Source of the DNA: Ignavibacteriales bacterium | Lineage (GTDB): Bacteria; Bacteroidota; Ignavibacteria; UBA10030; UBA6906 | Length of the DNA stretch: 31,899 nt | Assembly: GCA_037441705.1 (NCBI GenBank) | Contig: JBBIRR010000042.1 | Coordinates: forward strand, 1 to 31,899 | Direction: 5' to 3' | In this document: positions 1 to 26,028 of the stretch, one piece after another | How the letters are laid out: every line of letters begins with the position of its first letter | Numbering within the stretch: the first letter of the stretch is position 1 | Translations under genes and position numbers: made by a program | Notes under the pieces: model-generated | What the model was told of the DNA's origin: nothing | Databases searched by the model: none | What the model saw: the letters and a program-made list of their open reading frames with translations, nothing else

Positions 1-512
1 AGCACAGCTCGGGTGAGTATCGCTTCGTTCTGAAGGATACCTCCTCCAACTGGACACAGTATCAGGTCATCATCACTGTGCCCGATAACGCCGTCCGCGC
101 TGTCTCCGTTCGGCCTCGTGCCTTCCCCCTCTGGACGGGCATCTCCTACTACGACGACTTCGCAGTCAATGCGATAGACGTCGTGACCTCGGTCTCCGAT
201 CCGGGACCCACACCCGTCGGCACACACCTGCCGAAGGCGTATGCCCTCGAGCAGAACTATCCGAACCCGTTCAATCCAACAACCACCATTACCTACGACG
301 TTGCCACGATGGGTGAGATACGACTGAACATCTACAACATCATCGGGCAAAAGGTTCGCACGCTGGTCAATCAGGTACAGCCTGCGGGCCGATGGTCGGT
401 AGTGTGGGATGGCCGGGATGACTTTGGTAGTGCCGTTACGAGCGGCGTGTACTTCTATCGGTTGGAGACATCGGGCGTGGCACTGACGCGCAAGATGGTA
501 CTTCTCAAGTAA
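1..512 (+). CDS. Secreted protein with FlgD-Ig/T9SS type A C-terminal sorting domain (5'-partial)
   Basis: Frame is open from position 3 (HSSGEYRFVLKDTSSNWTQY...), so the gene starts upstream of the window. C-terminus LEQNYPNPFNPTTTI...WDGRDDFG...SGVYFYRL...KMVLLK is a typical CTD. The preceding segment (W..Y...G..YYDDF) looks like the end of a CBM-like beta-sandwich. Confidence 0.85.
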   Translation, partial: HSSGEYRFVLKDTSSNWTQYQVIITVPDNAVRAVSVRPRAFPLWTGISYYDDFAVNAIDVVTSVSDPGPTPVGTHLPKAYALEQNYPNPFNPTTTITYDVATMGEIRLNIYNIIGQKVRTLVNQVQPAGRWSVVWDGRDDFGSAVTSGVYFYRLETSGVALTRKMVLLK

Positions 513-523
513 TACGTTCCGTC

Positions 524-569
524 TGTGGGCGCCGCGGCGTGCGGCGTACGCGAACCGCGCGCGCCCACA
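524..569 (+). promoter_or_regulatory. Intergenic GC-rich stem-loop (mRNA stabiliser or partial terminator)
   Basis: tgtgggcgc (524-532) pairs with gcgcccaca (561-569), extended by cgcgg/ccgcg. No U-tract follows. Confidence 0.45.
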
Positions 570-597
570 TTGACTCTCTCATCACTGAAGGTGAGCT

Positions 598-3216
598 ATG
601 GTCATGCGATTTTGCTTCGTCACATCCCTCTGCCTGCTCGCCACATGCCTTGCCCGCGGCGGTACAACCGGCAAGATTGCCGGCAAGGTTGTGGATGCCG
701 CAACACAGGAACCGCTGGTGGGCGTGAACATCCTCGTTGAAGGAACAAAGCTCGGAGCGTCAACCGACGCAGACGGTCTCTACGCCGTCATCAACATTCC
801 GCCCGGCACATACACTGTTGTTGCATCAGCCATCGGATATCATCCGTCGCGCATCACCAAAGTCCACGTTTCAGTTGATCTCACCACCACGCTGAATTTT
901 ACGTTGAACGAATCCTCGGTTGCGCTTGGCGAGGAGATCACCGTGGTTGCCGAACGTCCGATGGTACAGAAGGATTTGACCTCCAGCTCTGCAAAAGTCA
1001 CTGCGGAACAGATCAAGGCATATCCCGTTGAAAACGTGTCGGCACTGATCAATCTTCAGGCGGGAGTTGTTGAAGGCCACTTCCGCGGAGGACGCAGCGG
1101 CGAAGTCCTCTACCTCATTGACGGCATCCCGGTCACCGATGCATACTCGGGCGCATCGGGGGTTACGGCGGAGACCAACGCAATCCAGGAATTGGAAATC
1201 ATCAGCGGCACGTTCAACGCCGAATACGGGCAGGCACTTTCGGGCGTCGTGAATCAGATTACAAAAGAAGGCAGCGGGCAGCTGCAGGCAGATATTTCTG
1301 CGTACACGGGCGACTACGTCAGCGCACACACAGACCTGCTTCCGAACATCCGTCGTGTCCGTCCGCAGGACGTGTATAATGTCGAGGGCAATATCAGCGG
1401 GCCGTTGTTTCCCGGCGCCACGTTCTTTTTCTCAGGGCGGCTGTATTACAACGATGGATGGTTGTATGGAAGGCGGATCTTCCTGCCGACCGATTCCTCC
1501 AATTTCAGTTCGAACGACCCGTCGCAGTGGTATGTACAGCGATCCGGCGATAGCGCGTATGTGCCCATGAACCCCGATCGGCGCTGGACAACTCAAGCAA
1601 AAATCACCTTCAATCTTTTTGGTGATGATAAGCTCCGACTCAATGTCTTGCATCAGGAAAACAGCTATCGCCGATACGATCATCGATACAAATACAATCC
1701 CGACGGCACGTATCGAAACTTCGGGAAGGGGACACTGGGAAGTCTGACGTACACCAAAGTGTTGAGCACATCGAGCTACATCGAGGCGAGCGCAGCATGG
1801 TTCAGCAATCGGGAAGATTCCTATGTGTATGAAGACCCGCTCGATCCTCGGTTTCCTCCGTACACGCGGCGACTGGCGACAGGAGGGTCGGCGTTTCTGA
1901 CCGGAGGCGCGGAGGATCTGCATCTGCACCGCGAGTCTCGATACATCGGCGGGAAGTTCGACATCGTTAGTCAACTCACACCGGAGCACCAGATCAAAGC
2001 GGGAGGCGAACTGAAGGCACATCGGCTCTGGATTCACAACTTCGGTATCCGCAACGATCAGAGCACAAACTTCAAGCCCGAGATTGTGGAGTTTGGACGA
2101 TCACAGTTTGCTCATCAGATTCTGCGGCCGTTGCAGATCGCCGCGTACGCTCAGGATAAGATGGAGTTTCGAGATTTTATCGTGAATGTCGGTGTGCGTT
2201 TCGATTACTTCAACCCCAAAGCCAAAGTTCTTCTCCAGCAACTTCGGTTGGGGCAGCAGCCGGTGCTCGCCGTCGCGCCGACGGAAAGCCAGATCAGTCC
2301 GCGCATCGGCATCTCCTACCCCATTACCGATCGAGGAGTGCTGCACTTAGCGTACGGACACTTTTTCCAGATTCCGCAGTTCGATCTGATGTACTTGAAT
2401 CCTGCGTACAACATCAACGCCACGGATGCATTTCAGGTGGGCAATCCCGGCCTCAAATCGCAGCGAACCGTTGCTTACGAATTGGGACTTCAGCAGCAGC
2501 TCAGCAACGACATCAAGCTCGACGTGACCGGCTACTACAAGGACTTTCGCAACCTTGTCGGAACGGAGATTTTCGACATCGGCAACGGAAACAAATACTC
2601 GCAGTACGTGAACCGGGATTACGGGAATGCGAAAGGCATCATCATCTCGTTGGAAAAGCGGCACACGCACGGATTCTCGGCGACGCTGGACTATACCTTC
2701 CAGGTTGCTCGCGGCAATGCGTCCGACCCCAATGCGGTGTTTCTCGATAACCAGACCGACCCGCCGCGGGAGAGTCAGAAACAACTTGCGCCTCTGGATT
2801 GGGATCGGAGACACTCGCTCAACGTTACGGCCACGGTCGGTTCCTTGCAGGATTTTACCGTCACCATCATCGGCAAACTCGGGTCGGGCCTGCCTTACAC
2901 GCCGGCGCTGTTCAACCAGCGAACCGGATTGCTCAACAGCGAAACGCGACCAACAAACGTGACCGTTGACCTCTACGCCACAAAATATCTCGATTTCTTC
3001 GGCTCTCCCGTCAACATCTTCATCAAGGTGTACAACCTGTTCGATACGAAGAACGAGCTTGACGTCTTCAGCGATACAGGACGTGCAACGTACAGTGTTC
3101 AGGCAAATTACGAAGGCATGCCGCGCGGTATCAATACGATTCAGGAGTATTACACACGGCCCGACTTCTATTCGGCTCCACGGCAGGTGATTGTTGGGCT
3201 TGGGATTTCATTCTAA
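598..3216 (+). CDS. TonB-dependent receptor with N-terminal carboxypeptidase-regulatory-like domain
   Basis: Signal peptide; GKIAGKVVD..T.EPLVGVNI...TDADG.Y N-domain; EEITVVAERP; plug motifs RGGRSGEVLYLIDG and FNAEYGQALSGVVN; barrel motifs SPRIGISYP and GNPGLK; C-terminal Phe. Start may be 604. Confidence 0.93.
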   Translation: MVMRFCFVTSLCLLATCLARGGTTGKIAGKVVDAATQEPLVGVNILVEGTKLGASTDADGLYAVINIPPGTYTVVASAIGYHPSRITKVHVSVDLTTTLNFTLNESSVALGEEITVVAERPMVQKDLTSSSAKVTAEQIKAYPVENVSALINLQAGVVEGHFRGGRSGEVLYLIDGIPVTDAYSGASGVTAETNAIQELEIISGTFNAEYGQALSGVVNQITKEGSGQLQADISAYTGDYVSAHTDLLPNIRRVRPQDVYNVEGNISGPLFPGATFFFSGRLYYNDGWLYGRRIFLPTDSSNFSSNDPSQWYVQRSGDSAYVPMNPDRRWTTQAKITFNLFGDDKLRLNVLHQENSYRRYDHRYKYNPDGTYRNFGKGTLGSLTYTKVLSTSSYIEASAAWFSNREDSYVYEDPLDPRFPPYTRRLATGGSAFLTGGAEDLHLHRESRYIGGKFDIVSQLTPEHQIKAGGELKAHRLWIHNFGIRNDQSTNFKPEIVEFGRSQFAHQILRPLQIAAYAQDKMEFRDFIVNVGVRFDYFNPKAKVLLQQLRLGQQPVLAVAPTESQISPRIGISYPITDRGVLHLAYGHFFQIPQFDLMYLNPAYNINATDAFQVGNPGLKSQRTVAYELGLQQQLSNDIKLDVTGYYKDFRNLVGTEIFDIGNGNKYSQYVNRDYGNAKGIIISLEKRHTHGFSATLDYTFQVARGNASDPNAVFLDNQTDPPRESQKQLAPLDWDRRHSLNVTATVGSLQDFTVTIIGKLGSGLPYTPALFNQRTGLLNSETRPTNVTVDLYATKYLDFFGSPVNIFIKVYNLFDTKNELDVFSDTGRATYSVQANYEGMPRGINTIQEYYTRPDFYSAPRQVIVGLGISF

Positions 3217-3225
3217 GGGTGATGT

Positions 3226-6200
3226 ATGAAGCAAGGTTTTCGTTGGCTGCTGGCCGTAGGTTGTCTGCTCGTCTCGGCATGGCACTCTCCCCTTGTCGCG
3301 CAGCGTTACATCGATCCCAACAAGGGCAACATCATCTACACCAAACGCGGGATCATGGATGGCAACAACGTACGTACGATCTACTTCAATCATGGAGAGA
3401 TCGCTCATTGGCCCGATCAGCCTTCCGGAGAGTGGCCGAAAGGCACGGGCCATACGTACGTTGACGGCGTGGCGGTGATTGTTCAAGCGGAGACGCGCGA
3501 CTCCTCCGGCCGCGTGATTCATCCTCTGGAAACAAACTACCGCGAGTTCATCCGCAAGGACCCCATCACGGGGATTCCCTGGGGGTGGGCACCGCTGCCG
3601 GGCTACGCGAACCCAACACAAAGCGAACCTGCACGCAGCGATAAACCTGACACCTGGCCCTCGACCTGGCCCGACCGTTCGCCCGAGTGGAACGGGCTGT
3701 GGAACGGTTTCTTCGGACGCGGCATCCTCAATGCGGATGTCGAAACCTATTTCCGGATGGACGACGCACCGGACAAGCAGTATGCCTACTGGCCCGATCC
3801 GGGCGATAGTTCTCGCGGCGGCCTGGGGCTTCAGGTGGCAGTGCGCGGTTTCCAGTGGTCGCAAGTGCTGGCTGCCGATGTTATCTTCTGGTATTATGAA
3901 ATCACCAACATCGCGCAACAGGATTATACCAAGACGGTGTTCGCACAGTATGTGGATTGGGGAATCGGCGGGAATCAGGACTCCAGCGACGACCGGGGAT
4001 TGTTCGACAAGGAACTCGACATTGCTTATGCCTTCGACGGTGACGGTATCGGCCAACCGGGAAACTGGGGCCCGACGGGGTACGCCGGCTATGCTTTCCT
4101 CGAGAGTCCGGGCATCGCCGTCAACAGCGTTGACGATGACGACGATGGAATCGTTGACGAACTTCGCGATAACGATGCAGGCATCAGACTTTCGGGGCGA
4201 GAAGCGGTCGTCGCGTACATACAATCCCACTACAACGTGCAAAAGTTCCTGAGTTTCTTCAACTATGACAGTCTGGGCGATGTGCCGGCCGTGCAACAAG
4301 GCTACGGTTGGACGGGCGACGAGAATTTGAACTGGCTCGGCTTCGCCGACCTCAACGGTAACGGCGTGTGGGATAACGGCGAGCCGTTGAACGACGATGT
4401 CGGCGCCGATGGCCTTGGACCCTTCGATGCAGCCTATCCGGGTCCCGATCCCGACGGCACGCAGGGCAACGGCAGACCAGAACAGGGCGAACCGAACTTC
4501 GGCATTCTCGACAAAGACGAATCGGATCAGATCGGCCTGACGGGATTCAGCATCTTCCCCGTTCACTTCTACGAGTTACACAACGACGAACAGAACTGGG
4601 AGGTGTTGACGACGTTGATCGACACGACGGGCGTGCAGCAGCTCAATGATGTCAATCTTGGAATGTTCTTCTCGGCAGGTGCACGACCACAGGGGAGTTT
4701 TCCGGGGAATCTTTTCCCGATGCGGCGACTTGCGACCGAGCGCTTCTCCATGGCGCTTCTGTTCGGAAATGATCGCGACGATCTCGTCCGACGCAAGAAG
4801 ACGATTCAGCAAATCTACAACGCGAATTATCGCTTCGCCAAGCCGCCCGATCGTCCTCGACTGACCGCGGTACCCGGGGATCGCAAGGTGACGCTGTATT
4901 GGGATGATGGAGCCGAACGATCGTATGACCCCTTCCTGCGCGAGCATGATTTCGAAGGCTACCGCATCTATCGCAGTACCGATCCCAGCTTTCTGGAAAG
5001 CATGTTGATTACCGACGCGTTTGGAAAGAAGACATTCCGAAAGCCGATTGCGCAATTCGATCTGAAGAATGGTAAGAAAGGCCTCCATCCTATTGACGTC
5101 AATGGCGTCAAGTTCGATCTGGGCAACGACACGGGGCTGCGCCATACCTATATTGATACCGATGTTCAGAACGGCCAGACCTACTACTACGCCGTTGTCT
5201 CGTATGATTACGGGCTTGTGACCACGACGGCGACGGGGCAGCAGGACGGCATCCCGCCCTCGGAATGCACCAGCACCATCAATGTGGACATCAACAATAA
5301 TGCGAAGACGGATATCAACACAGCCGTGGTCATCCCACGTGCGCCCGCAGCGGGTTACGTGGCGCCCGGCGTTGACGGTCAGATTCTTCACGAAGGACCC
5401 GGAACCGGGCGTCTGGATGTTGCCGTTCTCAACCCCAACCTGCTGAAGGATGGGCATATCTATCGTCTCACCTTCAGCAACGCAAGTGCGTTCCAGAACA
5501 ACCCCATCCCCACCTTCACGATGACCGATGAAACGGATCGGCGCATCCTGGTCACCGATCACCCCGTCAGCGCACCGGGCGAGGAAACGCCCATTGTTGA
5601 TGGAATGATCGGATACGTGTTCAACGACTCTGCTGTGACAATCAATGCCGATCGTACTCGGTGGAATGCAAACGATATCATGACGACACGCGTGCGGCTG
5701 GACGAGACGGGCGCATTCACGCTGCTGAATGTCCGCTATCCTGCAGATTTCGAAGTGCGGTTTTCGAGTACCATCGTTGACACGTCGGCCAGCGGGTTGT
5801 TCTTCGGCGCGCCGCCGGCGAGACCCGTGAATTTTACGGTGTTCAATACCACTGAAAATCGGAAAGCCCAATTTCTTTTCTACGATCCCGATAACAGCGG
5901 CACATTCACGCCCGGCGATCGCATCATTATTGTGTATGGGGACAGTCTCGGAAAGCGTCCGGAGCCCGGCAACTACCGTCCGACCTGGAGCGTGCAGATA
6001 TATTCCGACACGGCGCAACCGAATTTGCGATTGCCGCGTGCGGGCGATGTGTTGACGATCGCGACAACAAAACCGTTCCGCACCGGCGAGGCATTTCAGT
6101 TCAAGATTCGTGGAGCGAGAACCGACCCGAATAAGGCTAAATCGGATCTGGAGCGCATTGCCGTTGTGCCGAATCCTTACGTGGGGGCAGCATCGTGGGA

Positions 6201-6462
6201 GCCGCCGAATCTTTTCCGTGCCGGCCGGGGCGAACGCCGCATCTACTTCGTGAATCTTCCGGCCAAGTGTACTATCCGCATCTACACGATGAGCGGCGCA
6301 CTCGTCCAAACACTGCATCACGACGCCACAGTGGATAACGGACAAGAACCGTGGAACCTTGTGACACGAGACGGGATGGATCTCGCCTACGGCGTGTATA
6401 TCTATCATGTCGAGGCGCCGGGCATCGGTGAGCGGATTGACAAGTTTGCAATCATCAAGTAA
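3226..6462 (+). CDS. Large secreted protein (acidic Ca-binding-like loops, FN3-like domain, atypical T9SS-like CTD)
   Basis: Signal peptide ending PLVA-Q; DxDxDG-type motifs; FN3-like segment PRLTAVPGDRKVTLYWD...FEGYRIYRS...NGQTYYYAVVSYD; C-terminus IAVVPNPY...RIYFVNLP..CTIRIYT..G.LV...GVYIY.V...KFAIIK. Confidence 0.8.
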   Translation: MKQGFRWLLAVGCLLVSAWHSPLVAQRYIDPNKGNIIYTKRGIMDGNNVRTIYFNHGEIAHWPDQPSGEWPKGTGHTYVDGVAVIVQAETRDSSGRVIHPLETNYREFIRKDPITGIPWGWAPLPGYANPTQSEPARSDKPDTWPSTWPDRSPEWNGLWNGFFGRGILNADVETYFRMDDAPDKQYAYWPDPGDSSRGGLGLQVAVRGFQWSQVLAADVIFWYYEITNIAQQDYTKTVFAQYVDWGIGGNQDSSDDRGLFDKELDIAYAFDGDGIGQPGNWGPTGYAGYAFLESPGIAVNSVDDDDDGIVDELRDNDAGIRLSGREAVVAYIQSHYNVQKFLSFFNYDSLGDVPAVQQGYGWTGDENLNWLGFADLNGNGVWDNGEPLNDDVGADGLGPFDAAYPGPDPDGTQGNGRPEQGEPNFGILDKDESDQIGLTGFSIFPVHFYELHNDEQNWEVLTTLIDTTGVQQLNDVNLGMFFSAGARPQGSFPGNLFPMRRLATERFSMALLFGNDRDDLVRRKKTIQQIYNANYRFAKPPDRPRLTAVPGDRKVTLYWDDGAERSYDPFLREHDFEGYRIYRSTDPSFLESMLITDAFGKKTFRKPIAQFDLKNGKKGLHPIDVNGVKFDLGNDTGLRHTYIDTDVQNGQTYYYAVVSYDYGLVTTTATGQQDGIPPSECTSTINVDINNNAKTDINTAVVIPRAPAAGYVAPGVDGQILHEGPGTGRLDVAVLNPNLLKDGHIYRLTFSNASAFQNNPIPTFTMTDETDRRILVTDHPVSAPGEETPIVDGMIGYVFNDSAVTINADRTRWNANDIMTTRVRLDETGAFTLLNVRYPADFEVRFSSTIVDTSASGLFFGAPPARPVNFTVFNTTENRKAQFLFYDPDNSGTFTPGDRIIIVYGDSLGKRPEPGNYRPTWSVQIYSDTAQPNLRLPRAGDVLTIATTKPFRTGEAFQFKIRGARTDPNKAKSDLERIAVVPNPYVGAASWEPPNLFRAGRGERRIYFVNLPAKCTIRIYTMSGALVQTLHHDATVDNGQEPWNLVTRDGMDLAYGVYIYHVEAPGIGERIDKFAIIK

Positions 6463-6473
6463 GAGGTGGTGCC

Positions 6474-7526
6474 ATGAACAGGATGAGGCACATCGGAAAG
6501 CTGAAGGTGGCCGTGAGCGCCTTGACCATTCTTTTCTTCCTTGCTGCGGACCGGGGCGCAGCGCAAAGCGTCTCCAAAGCGGGCACGACGTCAGCCGTGT
6601 TTCTGGAGATTCCTGCGGGCGCGCGTGCCATCGCAATGGGCGGAGCGTTCGTCGCTACGGCGAACGATGTTTCGAGTCTGTACTGGAATGTTGCGGGCAT
6701 TGCTCGTCTGTACCGCAACGAGGCACTCTTCTCGCACAACGCATGGCTTGCCGATACACGTTTCGACTTCGCGGCGCTTGCTGTGCCGCTGGAGAGCTTC
6801 GGGACGCTCGGCCTCAGTTTCACTTCGCTTTCGATGGACGATATGATCGTACGAACCGTGGAACGACCCGAGGGAACGGGCGAACTGTTTAGCGCGGGAA
6901 GTTTCGCGGTCGGTGTACATTACGCACGCAATCTCTCCGAACAATTCAGCATCGGTTTCACGGCTAAGTACATCTCCGAATCCATCTGGAACATGCGCGC
7001 GCAGGCATTCGCCATTGATGTCGGCACGTTGTTCACGACCCATTTTCTCAACGGCATGCGCATCGGCGCGCAAATCTCCAACTTCGGCACCGATATGAAG
7101 CTTTCCGGACGCGACACGCGAACATTCCATCCCATCGATCCGAACAAACTTGGCAGCAACGATCGTATCCCGCAGAACATCGAAATGGATAGCTGGCACC
7201 TGCCGCTCAATTTCCAGTTCGGCGTCGCGCTCGATGCAATCAACAGCGACGACCATCTCCTGACGCTGGCGCTCGACGCGCTTCACCCAACCGCCAACTA
7301 CGAAAGTATGAACGTCGGCTTCGAATACGGATTTCGCAACACCTTCTTTGTTCGCGCGGGATTCCGCTCCCTGTTCCTGCAGGATCGTGAAGGAGGACTC
7401 TCGGCCGGCGCCGGCGTCCTCACCAGTCTCTTCGGCGAGCAGATCAAAGGACGGGTGGACTATGCCTTCCAGGATTTCGGACGTTTGAAGTCGGTTCATG
7501 TACTTGCCGTCTCCGTCCTGTTTTGA
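6474..7526 (+). CDS. PorV/PorQ (UPF0164)-family outer-membrane beta-barrel
   Basis: Signal peptide ending GAA-Q; FLEIPAGARAIAMGGAFVA..NDVSSLYWN.AG hallmark of the PorV/FadL-like N-terminus; amphipathic strands; C-terminal Phe; SD gaggt upstream. Confidence 0.85.
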   Translation: MNRMRHIGKLKVAVSALTILFFLAADRGAAQSVSKAGTTSAVFLEIPAGARAIAMGGAFVATANDVSSLYWNVAGIARLYRNEALFSHNAWLADTRFDFAALAVPLESFGTLGLSFTSLSMDDMIVRTVERPEGTGELFSAGSFAVGVHYARNLSEQFSIGFTAKYISESIWNMRAQAFAIDVGTLFTTHFLNGMRIGAQISNFGTDMKLSGRDTRTFHPIDPNKLGSNDRIPQNIEMDSWHLPLNFQFGVALDAINSDDHLLTLALDALHPTANYESMNVGFEYGFRNTFFVRAGFRSLFLQDREGGLSAGAGVLTSLFGEQIKGRVDYAFQDFGRLKSVHVLAVSVLF

Positions 7527-7533
7527 ACCGACA

Positions 7534-8835
7534 ATGCCTATGAAGATTGTGCCGATTGTTCTGGCCGTATGTGGATTGCTTGGTTGTCGTCAAGAACAGA
7601 TGTATGATCAAGCCCCTCCGGGGTTTGTCGAGCTGACCTACTGGCCTGCCCCGAACCAGCAGGAAGTACAGCTTGCCGACAGCCTCGTTCGAAAGTGGAA
7701 TCGCCTGCACCCGACCATCCGCGTTCGTATGCAGCCGATTCCCGTCAGCCAATCAACGGAGGAAGTTCTTCTGGCAGCTATTGCAGGCAAGACCACTCCC
7801 GACATCTGCTCCAATATATGGCCGGGGGCACTGCACGAGTACACGCGAGCAGGCGGCCTCATCGCCCTCGATCAGTTTCCAGACTTCGACTCCGTTATTT
7901 CCTCGCGAACATCGCGCGAGCTGCTGCTGAGCTTCCGCAGCGACGATGGCCATGTCTATCAGATACCATGGAAGACCAATCCTGTGATGATGTTTTTCAA
8001 TAAACGTCTGCTGCGCGAGGCGGGAATCCAGAACGTGCCACGAACTTTTTCCGAGTATCTTGCTGCCGGCATGCGCGTCACGAGAGATCGCGACGGCGAC
8101 GGTCAGATTGATGTGTGGATGGGAGAACGCGATATTCGACCGATCTGGTGGCAGCGTCTTTTCGATTTCTACCCCTTCTACATCGCTGCATCGCACGGCC
8201 GAACGCTGTTCCACCGCGGCGTCGTCTCCTTCCAGAACCGCGCGGCGGAACAGGTGATGGCGTTCTTTCAAGCTTGTTACTCCATGCGTCTGTATCCCCG
8301 TACGTTTTTCCAGGGCGGCGACCCGTTCTTGCTGGAAAAGAAAGCGACCCACTTCAGCGGACCGTGGGAGATTGCCGCCATCGAGAAGTTCGCTCCGCAC
8401 ATGGATTATGGCATCGCGCCGCTCCCCGTCCCCGACGATCATGACGGACCTGTGTACACTTATGGAGATTTCAAGAACATCGCCCTGTTTGCCAATACGA
8501 AGCACCCGCGCGAAGCATGGGAGTTCGCGAAGTTTCTTGTGCAAGCCGAACATGATGCGTTGCTCCTGGAGATTTGCAACCAGATTCCGGTTCGCAGCGA
8601 TCTTATGGAGAACCCGCTGTTCGGTGAGTACTTTGCGCGCCGCCCGATCATGCGCGCGTTTGCTCAGCAGTTACGCTTCACGCGCGGCGTTGATGCAGTG
8701 CCCGACCTGAAGGAGATTCTGGACGCCATCTCGCAAGAGTACGAAGCCTGCGCCGTCTACGGAACGAAGTCTCCGGGTGAAGCCGTTCGTTCGGCTGCGC
8801 GCCGGGCGGACATCATCATCGAATGGAACAAGTAA
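7534..8835 (+). CDS. Sugar ABC transporter solute-binding lipoprotein
   Basis: Lipobox LLGC; AIAGKTTPDI, YQIPW...MFFNK.LL.EAG, GPW, YGIAPLP and AWEFAKFL motifs of the CUT1 SBP family. Start 7534 or 7540. Confidence 0.9.
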   Translation: MPMKIVPIVLAVCGLLGCRQEQMYDQAPPGFVELTYWPAPNQQEVQLADSLVRKWNRLHPTIRVRMQPIPVSQSTEEVLLAAIAGKTTPDICSNIWPGALHEYTRAGGLIALDQFPDFDSVISSRTSRELLLSFRSDDGHVYQIPWKTNPVMMFFNKRLLREAGIQNVPRTFSEYLAAGMRVTRDRDGDGQIDVWMGERDIRPIWWQRLFDFYPFYIAASHGRTLFHRGVVSFQNRAAEQVMAFFQACYSMRLYPRTFFQGGDPFLLEKKATHFSGPWEIAAIEKFAPHMDYGIAPLPVPDDHDGPVYTYGDFKNIALFANTKHPREAWEFAKFLVQAEHDALLLEICNQIPVRSDLMENPLFGEYFARRPIMRAFAQQLRFTRGVDAVPDLKEILDAISQEYEACAVYGTKSPGEAVRSAARRADIIIEWNK

Positions 8836-8839
8836 CGCC

Positions 8840-9712
8840 ATGAGTCTTCGCTCCGTCATCCGCAATCCCGGCTATTGGTTTGCTCTCCCCTACGCCGTAT
8901 TCTTTCTTGCGTTTGTCGCGTATCCGTTATGCTTTTCGTTCATTCTCATCTTTCATCGCTGGAACATTGTCATGCCGATGGAGTGGATCGCTCTGAAGAA
9001 TTTTGCCCGCCTGACACAGGACTCTCTCTTCTTCAAAGCGTTGACCAATACACTAACATTTCTCGTGATCCACATTCCATTGCAGATTGTGGTTGCCCTC
9101 GGTTGCGCGATGCTGTTGAACACGAAACTGCGTGCGCGTGGTTTCTTTCGTTCGATCTACTTCCTGCCCGTCGTCGTCTCCGGCGTCGCCGTCACCATTC
9201 TCTGGCAGCAATTGTACGCGTACGACTACGGTGTTCTGAACACGCTGCTGCGCACCGTCGGTCTGCCACCTATCCCCTGGCTGGTTGACTCTTCATGGGC
9301 AATGCCGTCGATTGCCCTCATGGCAACATGGAAAAACGTGGGCATTTACATCGTGTTATTTCTTGCGGGATTACAGAACATCCCCGGAGAGTTGTACGAA
9401 GCCGCGAGCATAGACGGCGCAACACCGGCGAAGCGTTTCTGGTTCATTACTCTTCCCATGCTCAATCCCACGATTGTTGTCATTGTCGTGCTGTCCACCA
9501 TCGGAGGCTTCTCGCTGTTCATCGAGCCGTACGTTCTCACGGGCGGCGGCCCGATGCAGAGCACGCTCTCGGCCATGCTCTACATCTACAATCAGGCGTT
9601 TACGTTCGGCCACATGGGCTATGCAGCAACGTTAGGGTTTGTATTTGCAACGATGATTCTGATTGTAGTGCTTCTGCAGCGGAGACTCGTTGAGACGGAG
9701 CCGAACCTATGA
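8840..9712 (+). CDS. Sugar ABC transporter permease (MalF/UgpA-like)
   Basis: Multiple TM helices; EAA loop LQNIPGELYEAASIDGA; LTGGGP. ATG at 8840 lies just after the SBP stop. Confidence 0.93.
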   Translation: MSLRSVIRNPGYWFALPYAVFFLAFVAYPLCFSFILIFHRWNIVMPMEWIALKNFARLTQDSLFFKALTNTLTFLVIHIPLQIVVALGCAMLLNTKLRARGFFRSIYFLPVVVSGVAVTILWQQLYAYDYGVLNTLLRTVGLPPIPWLVDSSWAMPSIALMATWKNVGIYIVLFLAGLQNIPGELYEAASIDGATPAKRFWFITLPMLNPTIVVIVVLSTIGGFSLFIEPYVLTGGGPMQSTLSAMLYIYNQAFTFGHMGYAATLGFVFATMILIVVLLQRRLVETEPNL

Positions 9713-10518
9713 AGCGTGCCCTGGTCTATCTCATGCTCATCGTCGGAGCAGTCGTCTTCGGCTATCCGTTTCTGTGGATGATGGCCGGATCGCTCAAACC
9801 CGAACTGGACATTCCAAGCCTGAGCATCATTCCGGCGCAGCTGACGCTTCATAGCTATGAAGCCGTGTTCACGAAGATCCCGATCGTGCGCGCATTCTTC
9901 AACAGCCTGCTCGTCTCAAGCACCGTCACAGCGTCGGTGGTCGTTTTTGGCTCGATTGTCGGCTACGCACTCGCCAAGTTACAGTTTGCGGGACGCCGCA
10001 TGCTGTACATGCTCATTCTTTTCACGATGATGATTCCGTTTCAGATTGTTTTGATTCCCCAGTATGTGTTGATCGTGAAACTCGGCTGGACGGACTCCTA
10101 TCTGGGCTTGATTGCGCCGACGATGATGAGCGCCTTCAGCATCACGCTCTTCCGGCAATTCTTTCAAAGCGTCCCCTCGGCCCTGATTGACGCGGCCAGA
10201 ATAGACGGATGTTCGGAGCTTCGTATTCTGTTCTCGATCGTGTGGCCGCTGTCGCGCCCCGTCATCATCACGGTCGCCATTCTTACGTTCATGACAAGCT
10301 GGAACGAAGTTCTCTGGCCGTTGATGGTTGTCCGAGAGCGTTCGTTGATGACGATGCCCCAGTTGGTCGCTCTGTTCACCGTCGGAGGAGAGGCGGAGTC
10401 ACAACTGGGGGCCGTGCTTGCCGCAGCCACGCTGCTCTCGTTTCCGGTTATTCTGGCGTACGCGTTTTTCCAGCGCTATTTCATCGAAAGCATGGCAAGC
10501 ACAGGACTGAAAGGATAG
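9709..10518 (+). CDS. Sugar ABC transporter permease (MalG/UgpE-like)
   Basis: EAA loop VPSALIDAARIDGC; WNEVLWPL; FFQRYFIESM...GLKG. ATGA overlap with the previous gene. Confidence 0.93.
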   Translation: MKRALVYLMLIVGAVVFGYPFLWMMAGSLKPELDIPSLSIIPAQLTLHSYEAVFTKIPIVRAFFNSLLVSSTVTASVVVFGSIVGYALAKLQFAGRRMLYMLILFTMMIPFQIVLIPQYVLIVKLGWTDSYLGLIAPTMMSAFSITLFRQFFQSVPSALIDAARIDGCSELRILFSIVWPLSRPVIITVAILTFMTSWNEVLWPLMVVRERSLMTMPQLVALFTVGGEAESQLGAVLAAATLLSFPVILAYAFFQRYFIESMASTGLKG

Positions 10519-10519
10519 C

Positions 10520-12100
10520 ATGATAGTGATGGGAACCGATATGCGTGCGAGCGGCGTGAAGAGATCGGTCCGCAGAATAGTTATTCCCATGTTCTTTCTA
10601 CCGGCAATTCTCTGTCATGGGACCGCCAATGCCGGTGCCGATGACACGGTCGCAACCGTAGGCAGATTCATCATCACGAAACAAGACCTCTTGGATAGCT
10701 ACGAATTCGGACCGGCTTTTGTGAAACGCCTGCCTCAGCCGCTGCGGAGACATTTGAACTACATGGTGAACGAGCGGCTTCTGGCCCTGGAAGCCGAACG
10801 TCTTCGATTGGATACAACCGTCTTCGTGCGCGATCGTGTTGCAGCGTTGGAAGAGGACCTCGCCGTGGGTGAGCTGTACCGCGAGGAAATTCTCTCCCGC
10901 TTGCATGTTTCCGACACGGAACTCGACACGGCGCTCCAGAAAGCTCGAATGAGGGTACGATTACGCTGGCTCTTTGCCACGGATCGGTCACGTGCGGCAG
11001 CGCTCGCCGAACTTGCACGACGCGGCCGATTCGATTCTCTGTTCCTGGCACAACCGGATTCTCTCGGCGATCGCTCGCTCGAGACGACGGTGCTCGGGCT
11101 TGAGCTGTCGGTGCCGGACTTTGCATCCGCGATTCGCACGCTGCGTGTCAAAGAAATCTCGCCCCCGATTGAAGGGCCGGACGGCTTCTACATCGTGCGC
11201 ATCGAGCAGGTATGGCAAAACCCGCTGCTGACGGAAAGCGACGCTGCGCGTCTGCGTGCCGAGACGCTGTCGGCCCTTAAAGCAACCAGAGCGGAGGCAC
11301 TCGCCTCGGCGTTTGCAGAAGAAAAAATGCGCACTGCCGCGCCTGTCATCAAAGCAGAGGGCTACAATATCGTGCGGGCGTATCTTGCGGACAAAGGCCT
11401 CTCGCACGACCGGCGGCTTTCATGGAACATTCCCTCCACATTCATGACCGAAGCCGGCCCTATGCCCATTACCTCCTCCGATCAATTCCTCCATCGCCCT
11501 CTTGTTCAGTTCGGGTCACACGTGTTCACGGTCCGTGATTATCTCGGTTGGTTCGATATTCGTCAACCGCAGCTCAAACGATATTCGCTTTCGGCCTTCA
11601 ACACCAGCATCAGGCAAACAATTTGGAAAATGGTGCGGGACAAGCTGCTGAGTGAAGAGGCATACGCACGCGGGCTGCATCAACGGCACTCTCTCCGTCA
11701 TCAGGCAACGACGTGGGAGGCAAAAATCCTCTACCTCGCAGCCCGACGGCATCTGATGCGCTCCATTGTCGTGACCGACTCCATGCTGCAGGAACAATAT
11801 CGCAAGCGTTATACGCGCAAAGGCAACACCAACAAGTCGATCTCCTCCTTTGAACAAGTTCGTGATCAACTGTGGGCCGAGGAATACCTCCGTCAGGAGC
11901 AGGCACGGTTGTTGGACCTCTTGCAAGAACTTCGCAGGCGTCACCCGCCCCGGCTGAACGAGTCCCTTCTGCGTGAATTGAGTGCAACGATGCGAGCCGA
12001 TCCGGGAGCCATCGAGCTGAAAGTGTATAAACCTGGCGGAACGTTTTCGCGTGTTGCGTTCCCGACAATTGATGAACGGTGGCAGCTACTTTCACATTGA
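10520..12100 (+). CDS. SurA/PrsA-like periplasmic chaperone with degenerate parvulin (PpiC) domain
   Basis: Probable signal peptide (start possibly 10541); D.VATVG...IT..DL and LN.MVNERLLALEA..L SurA-N-like motifs; L.VKEISPPIEGPDGFYIVRI rotamase C-terminal motif; a second SurA-N-like module follows. Confidence 0.65.
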   Translation: MIVMGTDMRASGVKRSVRRIVIPMFFLPAILCHGTANAGADDTVATVGRFIITKQDLLDSYEFGPAFVKRLPQPLRRHLNYMVNERLLALEAERLRLDTTVFVRDRVAALEEDLAVGELYREEILSRLHVSDTELDTALQKARMRVRLRWLFATDRSRAAALAELARRGRFDSLFLAQPDSLGDRSLETTVLGLELSVPDFASAIRTLRVKEISPPIEGPDGFYIVRIEQVWQNPLLTESDAARLRAETLSALKATRAEALASAFAEEKMRTAAPVIKAEGYNIVRAYLADKGLSHDRRLSWNIPSTFMTEAGPMPITSSDQFLHRPLVQFGSHVFTVRDYLGWFDIRQPQLKRYSLSAFNTSIRQTIWKMVRDKLLSEEAYARGLHQRHSLRHQATTWEAKILYLAARRHLMRSIVVTDSMLQEQYRKRYTRKGNTNKSISSFEQVRDQLWAEEYLRQEQARLLDLLQELRRRHPPRLNESLLRELSATMRADPGAIELKVYKPGGTFSRVAFPTIDERWQLLSH

Positions 12101-12126
12101 ATTGCTGGAGTCTTCTTGAATAACAT

Positions 12127-14430
12127 ATGGAGAATTTGAAATACACGTATTCTGTTGATGATCTTTCAACCGGCAGCAGTCTCGGAAACCGACTCGTCTT
12201 TGCACGCCTTGACGAGCAATCCCACGTTCACGGACTGTGGAGTGCCTCCGACAACAGGTATTATCTGGGCAAATGGAATGTGGAGATTTTTGTCAACGGA
12301 CAGTCCCTGGTGCCGGTGGAAACATCATTCGAGCCGGAAGCGCAAGCAACACTGCTGATTCATCCCGAAGGGGAGGCCGAGCGAAAGTTTTTTCTCCCGT
12401 TCATTCTCGAACCAACTTCGCAGGATGATGATCAGCTGCGCGCGGGGATTTACCTCGTGCGACTGTGCAATACCGCAAGCAGGGCATGCGAGTTCCGCAT
12501 CAGGCATAAGCTAACGCTTGCGGCCGTCATCAGCGAAAAGTTTACAAAGAATCCCTCCCTCGAGGAGACGCTCGAAACATTTTCCTGCACGCAGAACGCA
12601 AGTCGCATCGACATCTCTGCAGCCGGCCGGCCTCACGAACTTCGCATGCTGGGGTCCACGATTCTTCCGGCGTCGGTTCAAAGCGGTGAGCAAACACTCA
12701 CGGTTGAGTACTGCGTCACGCTGCAACCGGGAGAGGTAATGGCGCTGCCGTTCGTGTTTGCCTTTTCTCCCGACAACCCTGATGCAGCCCTACGGACACT
12801 GCAGCAGTGCACGCAAGCTTCCGCCGTTTTGCAACAGACACGCCAGGAGTACGCCGCACTGCTTGCGCGCACGCATGTTTTCACGCCGGATGCCCTGATC
12901 AATCGCGGACTGCAGTGGGCGAAAATCAACACGGCACGTGTTCAACACCGCTATCGTATCGGGGTGGCATTCACCAACGATCCGCCGCAGGATATCGTGG
13001 TTGTACGCGATGTCGCCTGGTACGTTCTGGGAGCCGACTACATTGCGCCGACGTTTACCCACGAGATGCTGGAGATGCTGAATCGCTTCGCCGTTCATCC
13101 CGACGGCAAACTGACGGAGTATATCCACGCCGACGAAGTGCCGCCCACGCTTCACGACTATCACCTCAACATCAACGATGACACTCCACTGTACATCTAC
13201 GCGTTGTACCATCATGCTGTGACCTGTGAAGACACTGATTTCCTTCGCCGCGCGTACCCGATCATGCAACGCGCTGGTGAGTACATTTTGAGCCAGATGC
13301 GCAACGGGCTGGTCCATTGCACCGCTGAAGGAACGGGCGTGTGGGGAATTTGCAGCTGGCGCAACATCATTCAGAATTATACCCTCAACGGTGCCGTTAC
13401 CGAAATCAATGCCGAGTGTGTCGGGGCACTGCGCCTTCTTTCAGTCGCCGCATCTGCGGTGGGCAAGACAGAGGACTCGATCCGGTTTGCGCACGCCGCA
13501 GAGACCCTACAGCAGACTATGAATACGAAACTTCTGTCGGAGAAGACGGGCACATACGTATTGAATGAAGACATGTATGGAATTCGGCATCACGACCTGA
13601 CCGGCGATCTCATCTTTCCCGTTCTGTTCGACGTGGCCGAACCTGCGATGCGCACGCGGATCCTGGAGTTACTGCTCAGCGAAAAATTCTGGACGCCCTA
13701 CGGAGCACGCACCGTCCATCCGGATGAACCAACCTACGACCCCGAACGCGACTACCAACTGCTGGGGGGCGTCTGGCCAAACCTCACCGCATGGATTGCC
13801 TACTGCGTGCGCAGAGACAATCCCGACACGCTTGTCCAGGCCATGGCGAACTGCTACCGCCTCTGCGAAAGTGCGACACCAAAGAGCTTCGGTAACATCG
13901 TGCCGGGTCATTTCCCCGAGCGCTTGCACGGCGAAACGTTTGCGAGTCGTGGCATGACGATCAGTCCCTGGATGCCGCCGACGTACCTCTGGCTCGGCAT
14001 CGAGGGTCTTCTCGGCGTGCAGCCATCGCTTGAGGGCCTTGCAATCAATCCCGCAATACCCTCTTCATGGAAGTGGATTGCGGTGAACGAACTGCTGTAC
14101 CGCGGCCAACGCATCTCGGCATTTTTCTACGATGGCGTCCTGTATGCCACACATCCGGTACGCAGCAACTATCCCGTCCGTGTAGGCTCACCGGCTGTGT
14201 GTACGTCGAGCAGCAGTCATCTGTTTTCTTCCGCGATCGTATGCGATGACACGTTGTTCATGCTCGTAGCCGCGGACGAGGATGTTCGGGGGTGTGTCAC
14301 TGCTGAGACTTCGCACGGATACGCCATCAGGGAAGTTACGCTCAAAGCGGGCGAGGCAGAGTTCCTGAAAATCCCTGTTGCCTCCCTGAGCGTTTCCGAT
14401 ACAAATACGAAGGCAGCATCCCGGCAATGA
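12127..14430 (+). CDS. Cytoplasmic six-hairpin (alpha/alpha)6 glycoside hydrolase-like protein (GDE_C/GH63-like; family uncertain)
   Basis: No signal peptide; RDVAWY, NDDTPLYI.A..H, EINA, FWTPYGART...YDP...GGVWP, FPE motifs typical of six-hairpin glycosidases. Confidence 0.7.
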   Translation: MENLKYTYSVDDLSTGSSLGNRLVFARLDEQSHVHGLWSASDNRYYLGKWNVEIFVNGQSLVPVETSFEPEAQATLLIHPEGEAERKFFLPFILEPTSQDDDQLRAGIYLVRLCNTASRACEFRIRHKLTLAAVISEKFTKNPSLEETLETFSCTQNASRIDISAAGRPHELRMLGSTILPASVQSGEQTLTVEYCVTLQPGEVMALPFVFAFSPDNPDAALRTLQQCTQASAVLQQTRQEYAALLARTHVFTPDALINRGLQWAKINTARVQHRYRIGVAFTNDPPQDIVVVRDVAWYVLGADYIAPTFTHEMLEMLNRFAVHPDGKLTEYIHADEVPPTLHDYHLNINDDTPLYIYALYHHAVTCEDTDFLRRAYPIMQRAGEYILSQMRNGLVHCTAEGTGVWGICSWRNIIQNYTLNGAVTEINAECVGALRLLSVAASAVGKTEDSIRFAHAAETLQQTMNTKLLSEKTGTYVLNEDMYGIRHHDLTGDLIFPVLFDVAEPAMRTRILELLLSEKFWTPYGARTVHPDEPTYDPERDYQLLGGVWPNLTAWIAYCVRRDNPDTLVQAMANCYRLCESATPKSFGNIVPGHFPERLHGETFASRGMTISPWMPPTYLWLGIEGLLGVQPSLEGLAINPAIPSSWKWIAVNELLYRGQRISAFFYDGVLYATHPVRSNYPVRVGSPAVCTSSSSHLFSSAIVCDDTLFMLVAADEDVRGCVTAETSHGYAIREVTLKAGEAEFLKIPVASLSVSDTNTKAASRQ

Positions 14431-15446
14431 AAGCTGCACTCTTCACCGGTGATCGTCATCTCTCGATTGTCGAACGAGATCTGCGACGACTGTGCGACGG
14501 CGAGGCGCTTGTGCAGGTACATGCCTGTGGCATCTGCGGAACCGATCTTCACATCATCGAAGGCACGGCGCGTTCGTCACCGCCCGTCGTCCTCGGGCAT
14601 GAGTATGCGGGCCGCGTGCTTGACATCGCCGGCGAGTCACCTGTACTAACCATCGGCGCGCGAGTTGCGGTGGATCCAAATATCTCGTGCGGAAGCTGCG
14701 CGTATTGCAGGCGCGGCCTGGTGCATTTGTGCTCGAATCTCATTGCTCTGGGTGTCGATCGGGACGGCGGCATGGCCGAGTTCAGCATTGTACCGCTTCA
14801 GCAATTATACGCGCTGCCCGAAACCCTGACGCCCGAAACCGCATGCCTTGTCGAGCCGGTTTCGTGTGCACTGCACGGCATTGATCGGGCAGGAATTCGT
14901 CTGGGGGACACGGTGGTGATTCTCGGCGGAGGCACGATCGGTCTGCTCATGCTTCAGCTTGCGCGGCATGCAGGCGCAACGCGGATCATCGTGGTCGAAC
15001 CGGTAGAGCGCAAGCGAGCCGCCGCAATTGACCTCGGCGCAGATCACACGCTCGATCCGGTCACGACCGATATCCGTTCGGCCGTCTTCGACCTCACCTC
15101 CATCGGGGCCGACGTCGTGATCGAGTGCGCCGGCACGACTGCAACCGCCGAGCTTGCGCTGCGGCTTGCACGACGCGGCGGCACGGTTGTTTTCTTCGGC
15201 GTGTGCCCGCGCGCCGAAACATTCCCCCTGCCGCCGTACGACGTGTACGCTCGAGAATTGACCATCGTCGGATCGTACATCAATCCGCATACCTTCAGCC
15301 GCGCGCTCGACGTACTTGCTTCCGGCAGTATCACGATCGAGGCGCTTTCCCCGTCGTTCTTCTCACTCGAAGAACTTCCGGATGCCCTGCAGGCTCTGCG
15401 AGACGGAACAACAATCAAGAACATTATCCACTTCCGGAAGGATTGA
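14427..15446 (+). CDS. Zinc-dependent alcohol/polyol dehydrogenase (MDR family)
   Basis: CGICGTDLH and GHEYAG catalytic Zn motifs; CGSCAYC...HLC structural Zn; GGGTIG Rossmann motif. ATGA overlap with the upstream gene. Confidence 0.93.
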   Translation: MKAALFTGDRHLSIVERDLRRLCDGEALVQVHACGICGTDLHIIEGTARSSPPVVLGHEYAGRVLDIAGESPVLTIGARVAVDPNISCGSCAYCRRGLVHLCSNLIALGVDRDGGMAEFSIVPLQQLYALPETLTPETACLVEPVSCALHGIDRAGIRLGDTVVILGGGTIGLLMLQLARHAGATRIIVVEPVERKRAAAIDLGADHTLDPVTTDIRSAVFDLTSIGADVVIECAGTTATAELALRLARRGGTVVFFGVCPRAETFPLPPYDVYARELTIVGSYINPHTFSRALDVLASGSITIEALSPSFFSLEELPDALQALRDGTTIKNIIHFRKD

Positions 15447-15449
15447 AGG

Positions 15450-19972: not shown

Positions 19973-20001
19973 TTGTTTCAAGTATTGATTTGAAAAGTGA
20001 G

Positions 20002-22455: not shown

Positions 22456-22459
22456 CCGA

Positions 22460-24848: not shown

Positions 24849-24877
24849 GCTTTCTCAATCGTGAAGTTTGTGCATAC

Positions 24878-25465: not shown

Positions 25466-25489
25466 GCACGCCCTCTCCCGCGCGTAGAG

Positions 25490-25954
25490 CTATCGCAGCT
25501 CGGCAAGCAACCGATCCACTTTCGCTTCGTCGAGGTTCTCGTAGTACTCATCGCCGCATTGCAGCATCGGAGCGCCGCCGCAGGCCCCGAGGCACTCAGC
25601 TTCGACGAGCGTGAAGCGCCTGTCGGGGGTCGTCTCCCCTACCTTGATGCCGAGCCGGTTTTCGATATGCTTCAGAATTTTTTCTGCGTTGCGCAGCATG
25701 CAGGAAACATTCGTGCACACTTCCAGCTTATACCTCCCGACCGGCTCTTTGTTGAACATCGTGTAGAACGTCACCACGCCGTACACATGATGCGCGGGAA
25801 TGCCCAGGATGCGTGCGACGTATTCCATCCCCTCTTTCGAAATCCAGCCGTATTGCTCCTGCCACATCCAGAGTGCTTCGAGCACAACGGACTGCGGATG
25901 CTGGTAGCGTTTCTTCAGTTCTTCGATTCTCTTGAGAGATTGTTCAGAGAGCAT
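25490..25954 (-). CDS. nuoE: NADH-quinone oxidoreductase subunit E
   Basis: VVTFYTMF, CTNVSC and ECLGACGGAP 2Fe-2S ligands. Confidence 0.96.
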   Translation of the reverse strand: MLSEQSLKRIEELKKRYQHPQSVVLEALWMWQEQYGWISKEGMEYVARILGIPAHHVYGVVTFYTMFNKEPVGRYKLEVCTNVSCMLRNAEKILKHIENRLGIKVGETTPDRRFTLVEAECLGACGGAPMLQCGDEYYENLDEAKVDRLLAELR

Positions 25955-26028
25955 GCGTGTTCAATGAGTGATTCATTTCAACATCTTGATCCATCAGCTA
26001 ATCACCATCACCGGCTCGCGTCCATCGG

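Follow-up and report, generated by a model that had tools for sequence, protein, structure and literature searches.

A conserved triad of TonB-dependent receptor, variant-tailed T9SS protein and PorV-family barrel as a probable SusD-less glycan-uptake module in Ignavibacteriales

We describe a conserved set of three genes on a contig of Ignavibacteriales bacterium (GenBank assembly GCA_037441705.1, contig JBBIRR010000042.1), encoding a TonB-dependent receptor, a large secreted protein of no named family (the middle protein) and an outer-membrane barrel of the PorV/PorQ family. We propose, with a probability of about 0.6, that this triad is a single outer-membrane uptake module and the core of polysaccharide-utilisation loci that lack SusD, in which the middle protein is a glycan-binding partner of the receptor tethered by the barrel. 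The parts of this proposal carry different weight. The three proteins probably form one functional outer-membrane glycan-uptake module. It is somewhat more likely than not that the barrel holds the C-terminal tail of the middle protein and thereby tethers it. Capping of the receptor by the middle protein, as SusD caps SusC, is possible, at less than even odds.

The genome comprises 3.83 Mb in 92 contigs and is rated 100% complete. The window analysed here is the entire contig C42, 31,899 bp in length. The open reading frames (ORFs) of the triad run in the same direction, with gaps of 9 bp (3217-3225) and 11 bp (6463-6473), and their coordinates agree with an earlier note on this DNA, which had described a receptor, a 1078-residue protein and a barrel at that spacing (Table 1). 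The receptor consists of an N-terminal CarboxypepD_reg-like extension, a plug and a 22-strand-type barrel, and its plug (PF07715, 36.1 bits) and barrel (PF00593, 78.8 bits) identify it as a TonB-dependent receptor. The SusC/RagA model TIGR04056 matched residues 26-154 only, at 65.7 bits against a cut-off of 368.25. We therefore regard the protein as a non-SusC receptor, as had been claimed, that retains the SusC-type N-terminal extension. Its subfamily has eight paralogs scoring above 200 bits in this genome, and every contig that carries one also bears a middle-protein gene. The single true SusC of the genome (contig C34, 562.6 bits) is paired with a SusD_RagB protein. That pair (C34 6657-10979, reverse strand; locus L085) adjoins XPB-helicase-like and Bax1-nuclease-like genes, not carbohydrate-active enzymes (CAZymes).

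The middle protein lies in the slot where SusD would sit, and its description as a non-lipoprotein was upheld: the leader is a signal peptide ending in ..VA, before Q, as judged by eye without a predictor, and a consensus of 63 sequences has no conserved leader cysteine, the lipobox likewise being judged by eye. No Pfam or NCBIfam family matched the protein at E ≤ 0.01, including SusD_RagB (PF07980). Its model is mostly beta and, with no conserved leader cysteine, has neither the helical, tetratricopeptide-repeat-like fold nor the lipoprotein signal of SusD. The third gene, as had been noted, encodes a PorV/PorQ-family barrel (NF033709, 212.8 bits against a cut-off of 90). It does not reach the equivalog cut-offs for PorV (NF033710, 83.1 against 250), PorQ (NF033711, 74.4 against 220) and PorV2 (83.4 against 325), and its sole sequence relative in the PDB is the PorV of F. 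johnsoniae (6h3i_F, E 7.8e-9).

The genome encodes a type IX secretion system (T9SS): SprA, PorU, PorV and PorQ were found, together with more than 50 proteins bearing T9SS C-terminal domains (CTDs) in addition to PorU. The GldM model TIGR03517 gave no match, a null that is uninformative because the model was silent in all control genomes too. There are nine matches to PF19572 in the genome and 12 phmmer relatives of the triad barrel. All seven triad barrels reach only the generic NF033709 model, at 186-222 bits. The true PorV is on contig C19 (256 bits, cut-off 250), where it adjoins PorU (966.8 bits) near SprA (880.6 bits), and the true PorQ is on C11 (256 bits, cut-off 220). The triad barrel is thus not the housekeeping PorV, an identity that the earlier note had named as fatal to its proposal. 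Only the barrel of the C5 triad showed a weak PorP_SprF match (27.4 bits).

Searches of all ORFs with phmmer, combined with gene context, identified six canonical triads in the genome, on contigs C42, C16, C21, C20, C5 and C18, and two variants. On C7 the large protein is encoded two genes upstream of the receptor-barrel pair, and on C6 there is no barrel. In order to find related loci elsewhere, one genome per species was scanned with the middle protein as bait, and the 63 loci obtained were scored with hidden Markov models (HMMs) built from this genome's own paralogs. They came from metagenome-assembled genomes (MAGs) of Ignavibacteria, Melioribacteraceae, Calditrichia, KSB1, Neomarinimicrobiota, Krumholzibacteriia, Rhodothermales and Balneolaceae. 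A complete large protein with the variant tail described below was present in 56 of the 63. Of 47 loci with 2.7 kb or more of upstream DNA, 42 had the receptor directly upstream, and of 51 loci with 1.1 kb or more of downstream DNA, 48 had the barrel directly downstream. Where both flanks were available, all three genes were present (44 of 44 loci), and the canonical adjacent order was kept in 40. The four exceptions are two order variants (L034, L039) and two loci in which the middle ORF is apparently split (L054, L077). With six copies in the genome and 44 of 44 testable loci elsewhere, the triad arrangement is far from chance. SprA was present in all five distant triad-carrying genomes that were tested.

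The three genes have also diversified together. Among the seven triads of this genome, Mantel correlations were 0.82 between receptor and barrel (p 0.007), 0.84 between tail and barrel (p 0.002) and 0.75 between receptor and middle protein (p 0.01), a signal that stems mainly from the C42/C16/C21 group. Trees of 41 triads shared 23 of 38 bipartitions between receptor and middle protein, and 17 of 38 both between receptor and barrel and between middle protein and barrel, against a maximum of 4 with shuffled labels. The conservation and the tree congruence for which the earlier note had proposed checks are both borne out: the triad duplicates and is inherited as a unit, which does not by itself imply physical contact.

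Some divergent arrangements may be recorded here. On C6 (87781-94395; locus L084), the gene of a triad-type receptor precedes those of a 210-residue protein of unknown family and a convergently encoded 1136-residue protein with the variant tail (78.5 bits), with no barrel nearby. A Calditrichia MAG (L030, 622-10250) has two tandem middle-protein genes followed by receptor and barrel, and in a KSB1 MAG (L039, 3-9279) the order is receptor, barrel, BNR protein and middle protein.

The middle protein ends in a tail of approximately 110 residues that is common to all eight large proteins of the genome. Its pattern is a VVPNPY motif, an insert of about 20 residues, R.I.F.NLP..CTIRIYT..G.LV and a final GKFAIIK. 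The standard CTD models PF18962 and TIGR04183 did not match the middle protein at E ≤ 0.01. A profile of 48 variant tails nevertheless aligned with a profile of 10 type-A CTDs from the same genome at 95.6% probability (hhalign, E 1.2e-8, 56 columns), so that the earlier designation of the CTD as atypical stands and the tail is still linked to type-A CTDs. An HMM of the tail scored the eight proteins at 78.5 bits or more and every other CTD protein of the genome at 33.6 bits or less; the weak matches below 33.6 bits include ordinary CTD proteins and PorU. Since the tail matches ordinary CTDs by profile and is limited to these eight proteins, we regard it as a diverged type-A CTD private to this family. 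NCBIfam, which we take to hold a type-B CTD model, returned no type-B family for the middle protein at E ≤ 0.01. The variant tail occurs in 97 of 101 genomes of the order and 59 of 61 genera, in 1-23 copies each.

Structure comparison places the tail closest to the CTD of PorZ. Residues 968-1078 of the model align with residues 684-776 of PorZ (5m11_A) at Z 12.5, with a root-mean-square deviation (rmsd) of 1.9 over 92 residues and 27% identity. A separate model of residues 690-1078 repeated this match (Z 10.8 against 7.1 for PorU, 6.9 for mirolase and 6.3 for NucA). The tail thus has both type-A CTD homology and, as modelled, a beta-sandwich CTD fold whose closest counterpart is that of PorZ. 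The next-best proteins in the tail-HMM search were considered as candidates for the PorZ of this genome and rejected: the three examined are ordinary type-A CTD cargo, and no PorZ was identified among these matches.

A complex of barrel and tail was modelled from barrel residues 31-350 (alignment of 47 rows) and a 125-residue tail (48 rows). The complex score was 0.93 in all three runs, against 0.01 for the best of three controls, and the runs agreed in at least 91% of contacts, with a partner pLDDT (predicted local distance difference test) of at least 77. In calibration, 58 of 80 solved complexes attained the 0.93 mark, as did 2 of 110 mismatched pairs; these figures apply only roughly here because our own alignments were used. 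In the predicted interface, the tail contributes its PNPY segment, CTIRIYT strand and C-terminal KFAIIK, and the barrel contributes its N-terminal segment 33-46 plus regularly spaced segments, a spacing that capping of one barrel face would give. An interface between tail and barrel, one of the expectations of the earlier note, is therefore predicted.

The middle protein belongs to a large family, in which 4770 cluster representatives (50% identity) match at E ≤ 1e-3 and 709 do so at E ≤ 1e-30. At least 5818 of 8000 scored candidates matched at E ≤ 1e-3, and among the 120 best matches listed the only source-given name is "hypothetical protein". No PDB chain matched its sequence, and profile searches of the PDB gave marginal matches only (Fn3-like, E 0.01; PorU CTD, E 0.013; PorZ CTD, E 0.081). 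In a whole-chain Foldseek search the matches were only to Ig/Fn3 arrays at low TM, PorZ being ranked second, and the ESM Atlas returned unnamed clusters only. The AlphaFold2 (AF2) model of the protein, built on a 63-sequence alignment, has a mean pLDDT of 87.8 and a predicted template modelling score (pTM) of 0.82. Comparison of this predicted model using VIA-align matched residues ~32-540 to dextran dextrinase (9ju0; Z 20.3, rmsd 3.2, 257 aligned), a bacterial glucoamylase (1lf6; Z 19.6, rmsd 2.8, 234 aligned), glucodextranase (1ulv; Z 18.9), phosphorylases of glycoside hydrolase (GH) family GH94 (Z 16.3-18.5) and aldose epimerases (Z 13-14). As modelled, this region matches the galactose-mutarotase-like supersandwich, which is the sugar-contacting N-domain of GH15, GH65 and GH94 enzymes.

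Residues ~362-440 form an acidic loop region rich in D, N and G and without regular secondary structure. The confidently modelled stretch ~300-440 contains the conserved acidic motifs DNDxDGxxDE, DDVGxDG and GEPNFDxTDxDESDQIGLT, which, to judge by motif, look like calcium-binding loops. A tentative Fn3/Ig-like region follows, for which there are a weak profile match to the Fn3-like 3mpc (E 0.01) and Foldseek matches to Fn3 arrays. Conservation falls from 0.43-0.69 over residues 41-680 to 0.29-0.43 over ~711-965, is lowest at 721-960 and is high again in the tail. The variable region ~711-965 is absent from short paralogs of 694-752 residues. In the separate AF2 model of residues 690-1078 (pLDDT 90.0), its best partial matches are to the beta domains of FlgK (4ut1; Z 10.5, 85 aligned) and FlgL (7c7z; Z 10.1, 89 aligned), and such flagellar matches span Z 9.3-10.5 over 85-89 aligned residues.

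Gene context, assigned using Pfam, connects the triads to glycans. The triad on C16 is accompanied by LacI, GH13, a SurA-like protein and a CTD protein with a family 20 carbohydrate-binding module (CBM20), and its likely substrate is starch. C21 has a CBM9-CTD protein, GH94 and two PF10091 proteins (likely substrate, beta-glucan), and C18 has KduI, DUF4861, GH88 and LacI (likely substrate, uronate). In the window, the GH2, GH130 and GH63-like enzymes suggest a mannoside-type substrate. C20 has a CHRD protein and three BNR/CTD proteins nearby, and C5 has no clear CAZyme. The neighbour scan of the related loci covered 75 of 147 listed proteins in 17 of 32 loci. A glycoside hydrolase domain (GH2, 3, 9, 15, 16, 92, 94 or PF10091) was found in 9 of these 17, and a GH, CBM, LacI or sugar ATP-binding cassette (ABC) gene in 13. 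The typical gene 5' of the receptor encodes a CBM9, CBM4_9 or FlgD_ig protein with an ordinary Por_Secre_tail. The truncated gene at the left end of the window likewise encodes an ordinary type-A T9SS tail, according to Pfam. Sugar ABC importer genes lie 3' of the triad in L020 and L031, as they do in the window. The gene context and the galactose-mutarotase-like fold thus both support the link to glycans that had been suggested earlier.

The mechanism that we propose is as follows. The middle protein would cross the inner membrane by Sec and be exported through the SprA translocon via its CTD. It would leave the translocon on the PorV-family barrel encoded beside it rather than on the general PorV and, with its CTD kept, would stay tethered to that barrel at the surface, in the manner of PorZ on PorQ and PorU on PorV. 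Beside the receptor it would bind oligosaccharides freed by the surface enzymes of the locus and pass them to the receptor, and the ABC importer and the periplasmic or cytoplasmic GH2, GH130 and GH63-like enzymes would complete the breakdown. Common functions, namely contact with the sugar chain and possibly docking to the receptor, would be carried by the conserved N-terminal 680 residues, and adaptation to a given substrate would fall to the variable region 711-965. A broader version of this proposal holds that a three-protein complex, comprising a T9SS-exported supersandwich protein, its uncleaved PorZ-like CTD bound non-covalently to a private PorV-family barrel, and a non-SusC receptor, serves Ignavibacteria, Calditrichota, KSB1, Marinimicrobia, Krumholzibacteriota and Rhodothermia as their main device for polysaccharide uptake and is a third glycan-capture architecture beside lipoprotein-capped SusCD. 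We consider this version possible, at somewhat under even odds.

A number of points weigh against the uptake module as we interpret it. All of the support is computational. The conservation counts are conditional on the middle protein having served as bait, and co-diversification is expected of any tightly linked genes. Since PorV-CTD complexes have already been solved (8gl6 series; PMC10994853), the score of the tail-barrel model may reflect likeness to these rather than specific pairing. Some proteins with a supersandwich fold, such as the P1 domain of YidC (Z 12.5), do not bind sugar, and no sugar-binding residues were identified in the supersandwich of the middle protein; nor was a carbohydrate-binding module among the matches listed for residues 711-965. 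The barrel tree, with 57 rows, had an unresolved base and did not separate the triad barrels as a clade from PorV/PorQ; it gave 3 changes and long branches for the non-triad barrels. Finally, the triads on C5 and C20 have no clear CAZyme neighbours, as is also the case for 4 of the 17 loci scanned elsewhere.

Among other explanations, the barrel could be nothing more than a private T9SS carrier, with the middle protein released, or linked to lipopolysaccharide as ordinary cargo is, and acting independently of the receptor as a free or surface glycan-binder or as an enzyme. The presence of PorU and the many CTD-bearing proteins in this genome, the homology of the tail to cleavable type-A CTDs, and the affinity of CTDs for PorV, which is thought to drop after exit from the translocon (Lauber et al., PMC10994853), all favour such a carrier. 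We nonetheless consider it unlikely: seven barrels for eight cargos would be a high price for transport alone when every other cargo is served by the general PorV; the fold of the tail is closest to a CTD that PorZ retains; and the strict adjacency of the receptor (42 of 47 loci) would be unexplained. Still less probable is that the middle protein is a surface CAZyme of a new family, whether hydrolase, lyase or phosphorylase, whose products the receptor imports. Its family is large and unannotated, and its best structural matches are to the N-domains of GH15, GH94, GH65, GH116 and polysaccharide lyase (PL) enzymes. These matches, however, cover only the non-catalytic supersandwich (~230-270 aligned residues), and the mostly-beta model contains no (alpha/alpha)6 or TIM catalytic domain. 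A core common to the starch, beta-glucan, mannoside and uronate paralogs also fits a structural role better than one catalytic specificity.

Barrel and surface protein could instead aid assembly of the receptor in the outer membrane, similar to BamG-BamH of the beta-barrel assembly machinery (BAM) of Bacteroidota. BamG, a 14-strand barrel resembling FadL and PorV, uses its loops to bind a surface protein (PMC12578637), and genes for SurA-like peptidyl-prolyl isomerases (PPIases) lie in several triad loci. The genome has a separate BamG-like barrel, however, and the triad barrels score no more than 27 bits on the BamG model. That a genome may hold as many as 23 copies, each of them in a locus for another substrate, argues for a substrate-specific function, and we hold a role in assembly to be very improbable. 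The separate barrel is on contig C14, which also holds a PorV2-like barrel. It has 485 residues (C14 49995-51452; L083 6996-8453) and a sub-threshold BamG match (90.7 bits, cut-off 250), which hints at a Bacteroidota-type BAM accessory in this lineage.

The uptake module proposed here may be compared with known systems. TbpA/TbpB and BtuB/BtuG are TonB-dependent receptors with lipid-anchored surface co-receptors, and the CUT loci of Proteobacteria are glycan loci with TonB-dependent receptors that lack SusD. The triad resembles the former in combining a receptor with a surface-exposed, ligand-capturing partner, and differs in the proposed anchoring of that partner, which would be through contact with the barrel after T9SS export and not through lipid. 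It shares several features with SusC/SusD (RagA/RagB): the gene for a CarboxypepD_reg-extended TonB-dependent receptor comes directly before that of a surface partner, the surrounding loci also encode CAZymes, regulators and surface proteins that bind glycans, and a genome holds numerous copies, each specific to a substrate. In contrast to that system, the triad receptor fails the SusC model (65.7 against 368.25 bits), and the partner is mostly beta and double the size of SusD, is unmatched by SusD_RagB, is not a lipoprotein and carries a T9SS tail. The barrel adds an obligatory third gene, and the genome holds its one true SusC/SusD pair besides. Compared with a canonical polysaccharide-utilisation locus, the window has the CAZyme context and no adjacent susC-susD pair.

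The other half of the proposal has its precedent in the T9SS. PorV carries type-A cargo, and PorU and PorZ, whose CTDs are not removed, remain attached to PorV and PorQ, respectively; cognate PorV-like barrels may shield the CTD from cleavage (PMC10202324). Like these pairs, the triad would place a CTD-retaining surface protein on a PorV-family barrel, and its tail is closest to the PorZ CTD. Unlike them, the triad cargo is not part of the secretion machine, is present in multiple copies and is tied to a TonB-dependent receptor and glycan loci, and its barrel stays below the PorQ and PorV equivalog cut-offs in a genome with separate PorQ and PorV genes. The earlier note had drawn its parallel with type-B CTD proteins and their PorP/SprF barrels (e.g. 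SprB-SprF). There, too, a CTD subclass has a co-encoded barrel that carries and anchors the cargo, type-B proteins leaving the translocon on alternative carriers which then anchor them (PMC10994853). The triad tail is derived from type A, however, and the barrel of the window belongs to the PorV/PorQ family and not to PorP/SprF, which makes PorZ-PorQ the closer precedent. The interpretation offered in the earlier note therefore stands in part: the conserved triad, a barrel distinct from the housekeeping PorV, a predicted tail-barrel interface and the glycan context are supported, and PorZ-PorQ takes the place of the type-B pairing as precedent.

Each half of the proposed module has a precedent: receptors that work with a surface partner are known, and so are CTDs that stay uncleaved on a PorV-family barrel. 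Their combination into a widespread three-gene core of glycan loci without SusD appears to be undescribed. No description of a triad of receptor, CTD protein and PorV-like barrel was found in the full-text literature searched, whose coverage mostly excludes subscription journals. The accessible part of the Caldithrix paper (PMC5317091) contains nothing relevant to the triad. The 2013 M. roseus genome paper names SusC, SusD and SusE in a starch operon with a layout like that on C16, and true Sus proteins could not be told from the triad in its description.

Genes of this family occupy a central place in the glycan loci of several phyla that abound in sediments, soils, hot springs and the ocean. 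If the proposal is correct, it would explain how lineages poor in SusD take up polysaccharide fragments, and the combination of receptor, variant-CTD protein and barrel would be a genomic marker for their polysaccharide-utilisation loci. Tools keyed to SusC/SusD would be expected to miss these loci because neither gene passes the SusC/SusD models. The principle of PorZ-PorQ, a retained CTD on a cognate barrel, would extend to the anchoring of surface proteins in general; in the broader version, PorV-like barrels would repeatedly have been co-opted as general anchors at the surface, outside the secretion machine. The triad is, in addition, a clean setting for experiments on how each CTD subclass selects its carrier barrel.

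Table 1. Positions, strands and supporting evidence for features of the window (contig C42) and for SurA-like genes at related loci.
Feature	Location	Positions	Strand	Evidence
Upstream gene, 3' part, truncated by contig end	window	3..512	+	FlgD_ig 36.5 bits, Por_Secre_tail 30 bits
Receptor: TonB-dependent receptor, 872 residues	window	598..3216	+	PF13715, PF07715, PF00593
Middle protein, 1078 residues, secreted, without Pfam/NCBIfam family	window	3226..6462	+	ORF list, Pfam, NCBIfam
Galactose-mutarotase-like beta-supersandwich (modelled), residues ~32-540	window	3319..4845	+	VIA-align on AF2 model
Fn3/Ig-like beta-sandwich (tentative), residues ~545-690	window	4858..5295	+	strand pattern, weak profile match, Foldseek
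Beta-rich variable domain, residues ~711-965	window	5356..6120	+	AF2 model, conservation
Variant T9SS CTD, residues 966-1078	window	6121..6459	+	hhalign, structure match, tail HMM
PorV/PorQ-family outer-membrane barrel, 350 residues	window	6474..7526	+	NF033709
ABC sugar importer	window	7498..10518	+	SBP_bac_8, SBP_bac_1, BPD_transp_1 (Pfam)
Importer, solute-binding protein	window	7498-8835	+	
Importer, permease	window	8777-9712	+	
Importer, permease	window	9709-10518	+	
SurA-like PPIase-domain protein, 526 residues	window	10520..12100	+	Rotamase_2 38.9 bits
Remaining glycan locus	window	12127..23512	+	Pfam; TIGR04183 on LamG protein
SurA-like gene	L010	9396-11087	-	
SurA-like gene	L019	10460-12058		
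SurA-like gene	L035	10536-12227		
SurA-like gene	L038	10513-12255		

SurA-like PPIase-domain proteins of 520-580 residues recur within or beside several triad loci, including contig C16 of this genome. They may be dedicated periplasmic chaperones for the receptor, the barrel or the cargo. The remaining glycan locus of the window encodes an MGH1/GH63-like hydrolase, a Zn-dehydrogenase, a 465-residue protein of unknown family, a 1041-residue LamG protein that carries an ordinary type-A CTD (TIGR04183), a GH2 beta-mannosidase-like protein and GH130. Promoter and terminator scans of positions 1-13000 of the window did not rise above shuffled sequence (8 against 6.9 and 15 against 13.2, respectively). 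No Pfam or NCBIfam match was obtained for the ORFs at 15450-16847 (465 residues) and 29027-30196 (389 residues), the former of which sits inside the glycan locus between the dehydrogenase and LamG-CTD protein genes. The right border of the locus is formed by genes for NADH dehydrogenase subunits (51K, 49 kDa, 30 kDa and 20 kDa) on the reverse strand at 23538-28465. Elsewhere in the genome, on contig C46 (6327-8326, reverse strand; L017), tandem PorV/PorQ-family barrels (169.5 and 81.6 bits) lie directly 3' of a 514-residue protein with an ordinary CTD. This set has no TonB-dependent receptor and may be another private combination of barrel and cargo.

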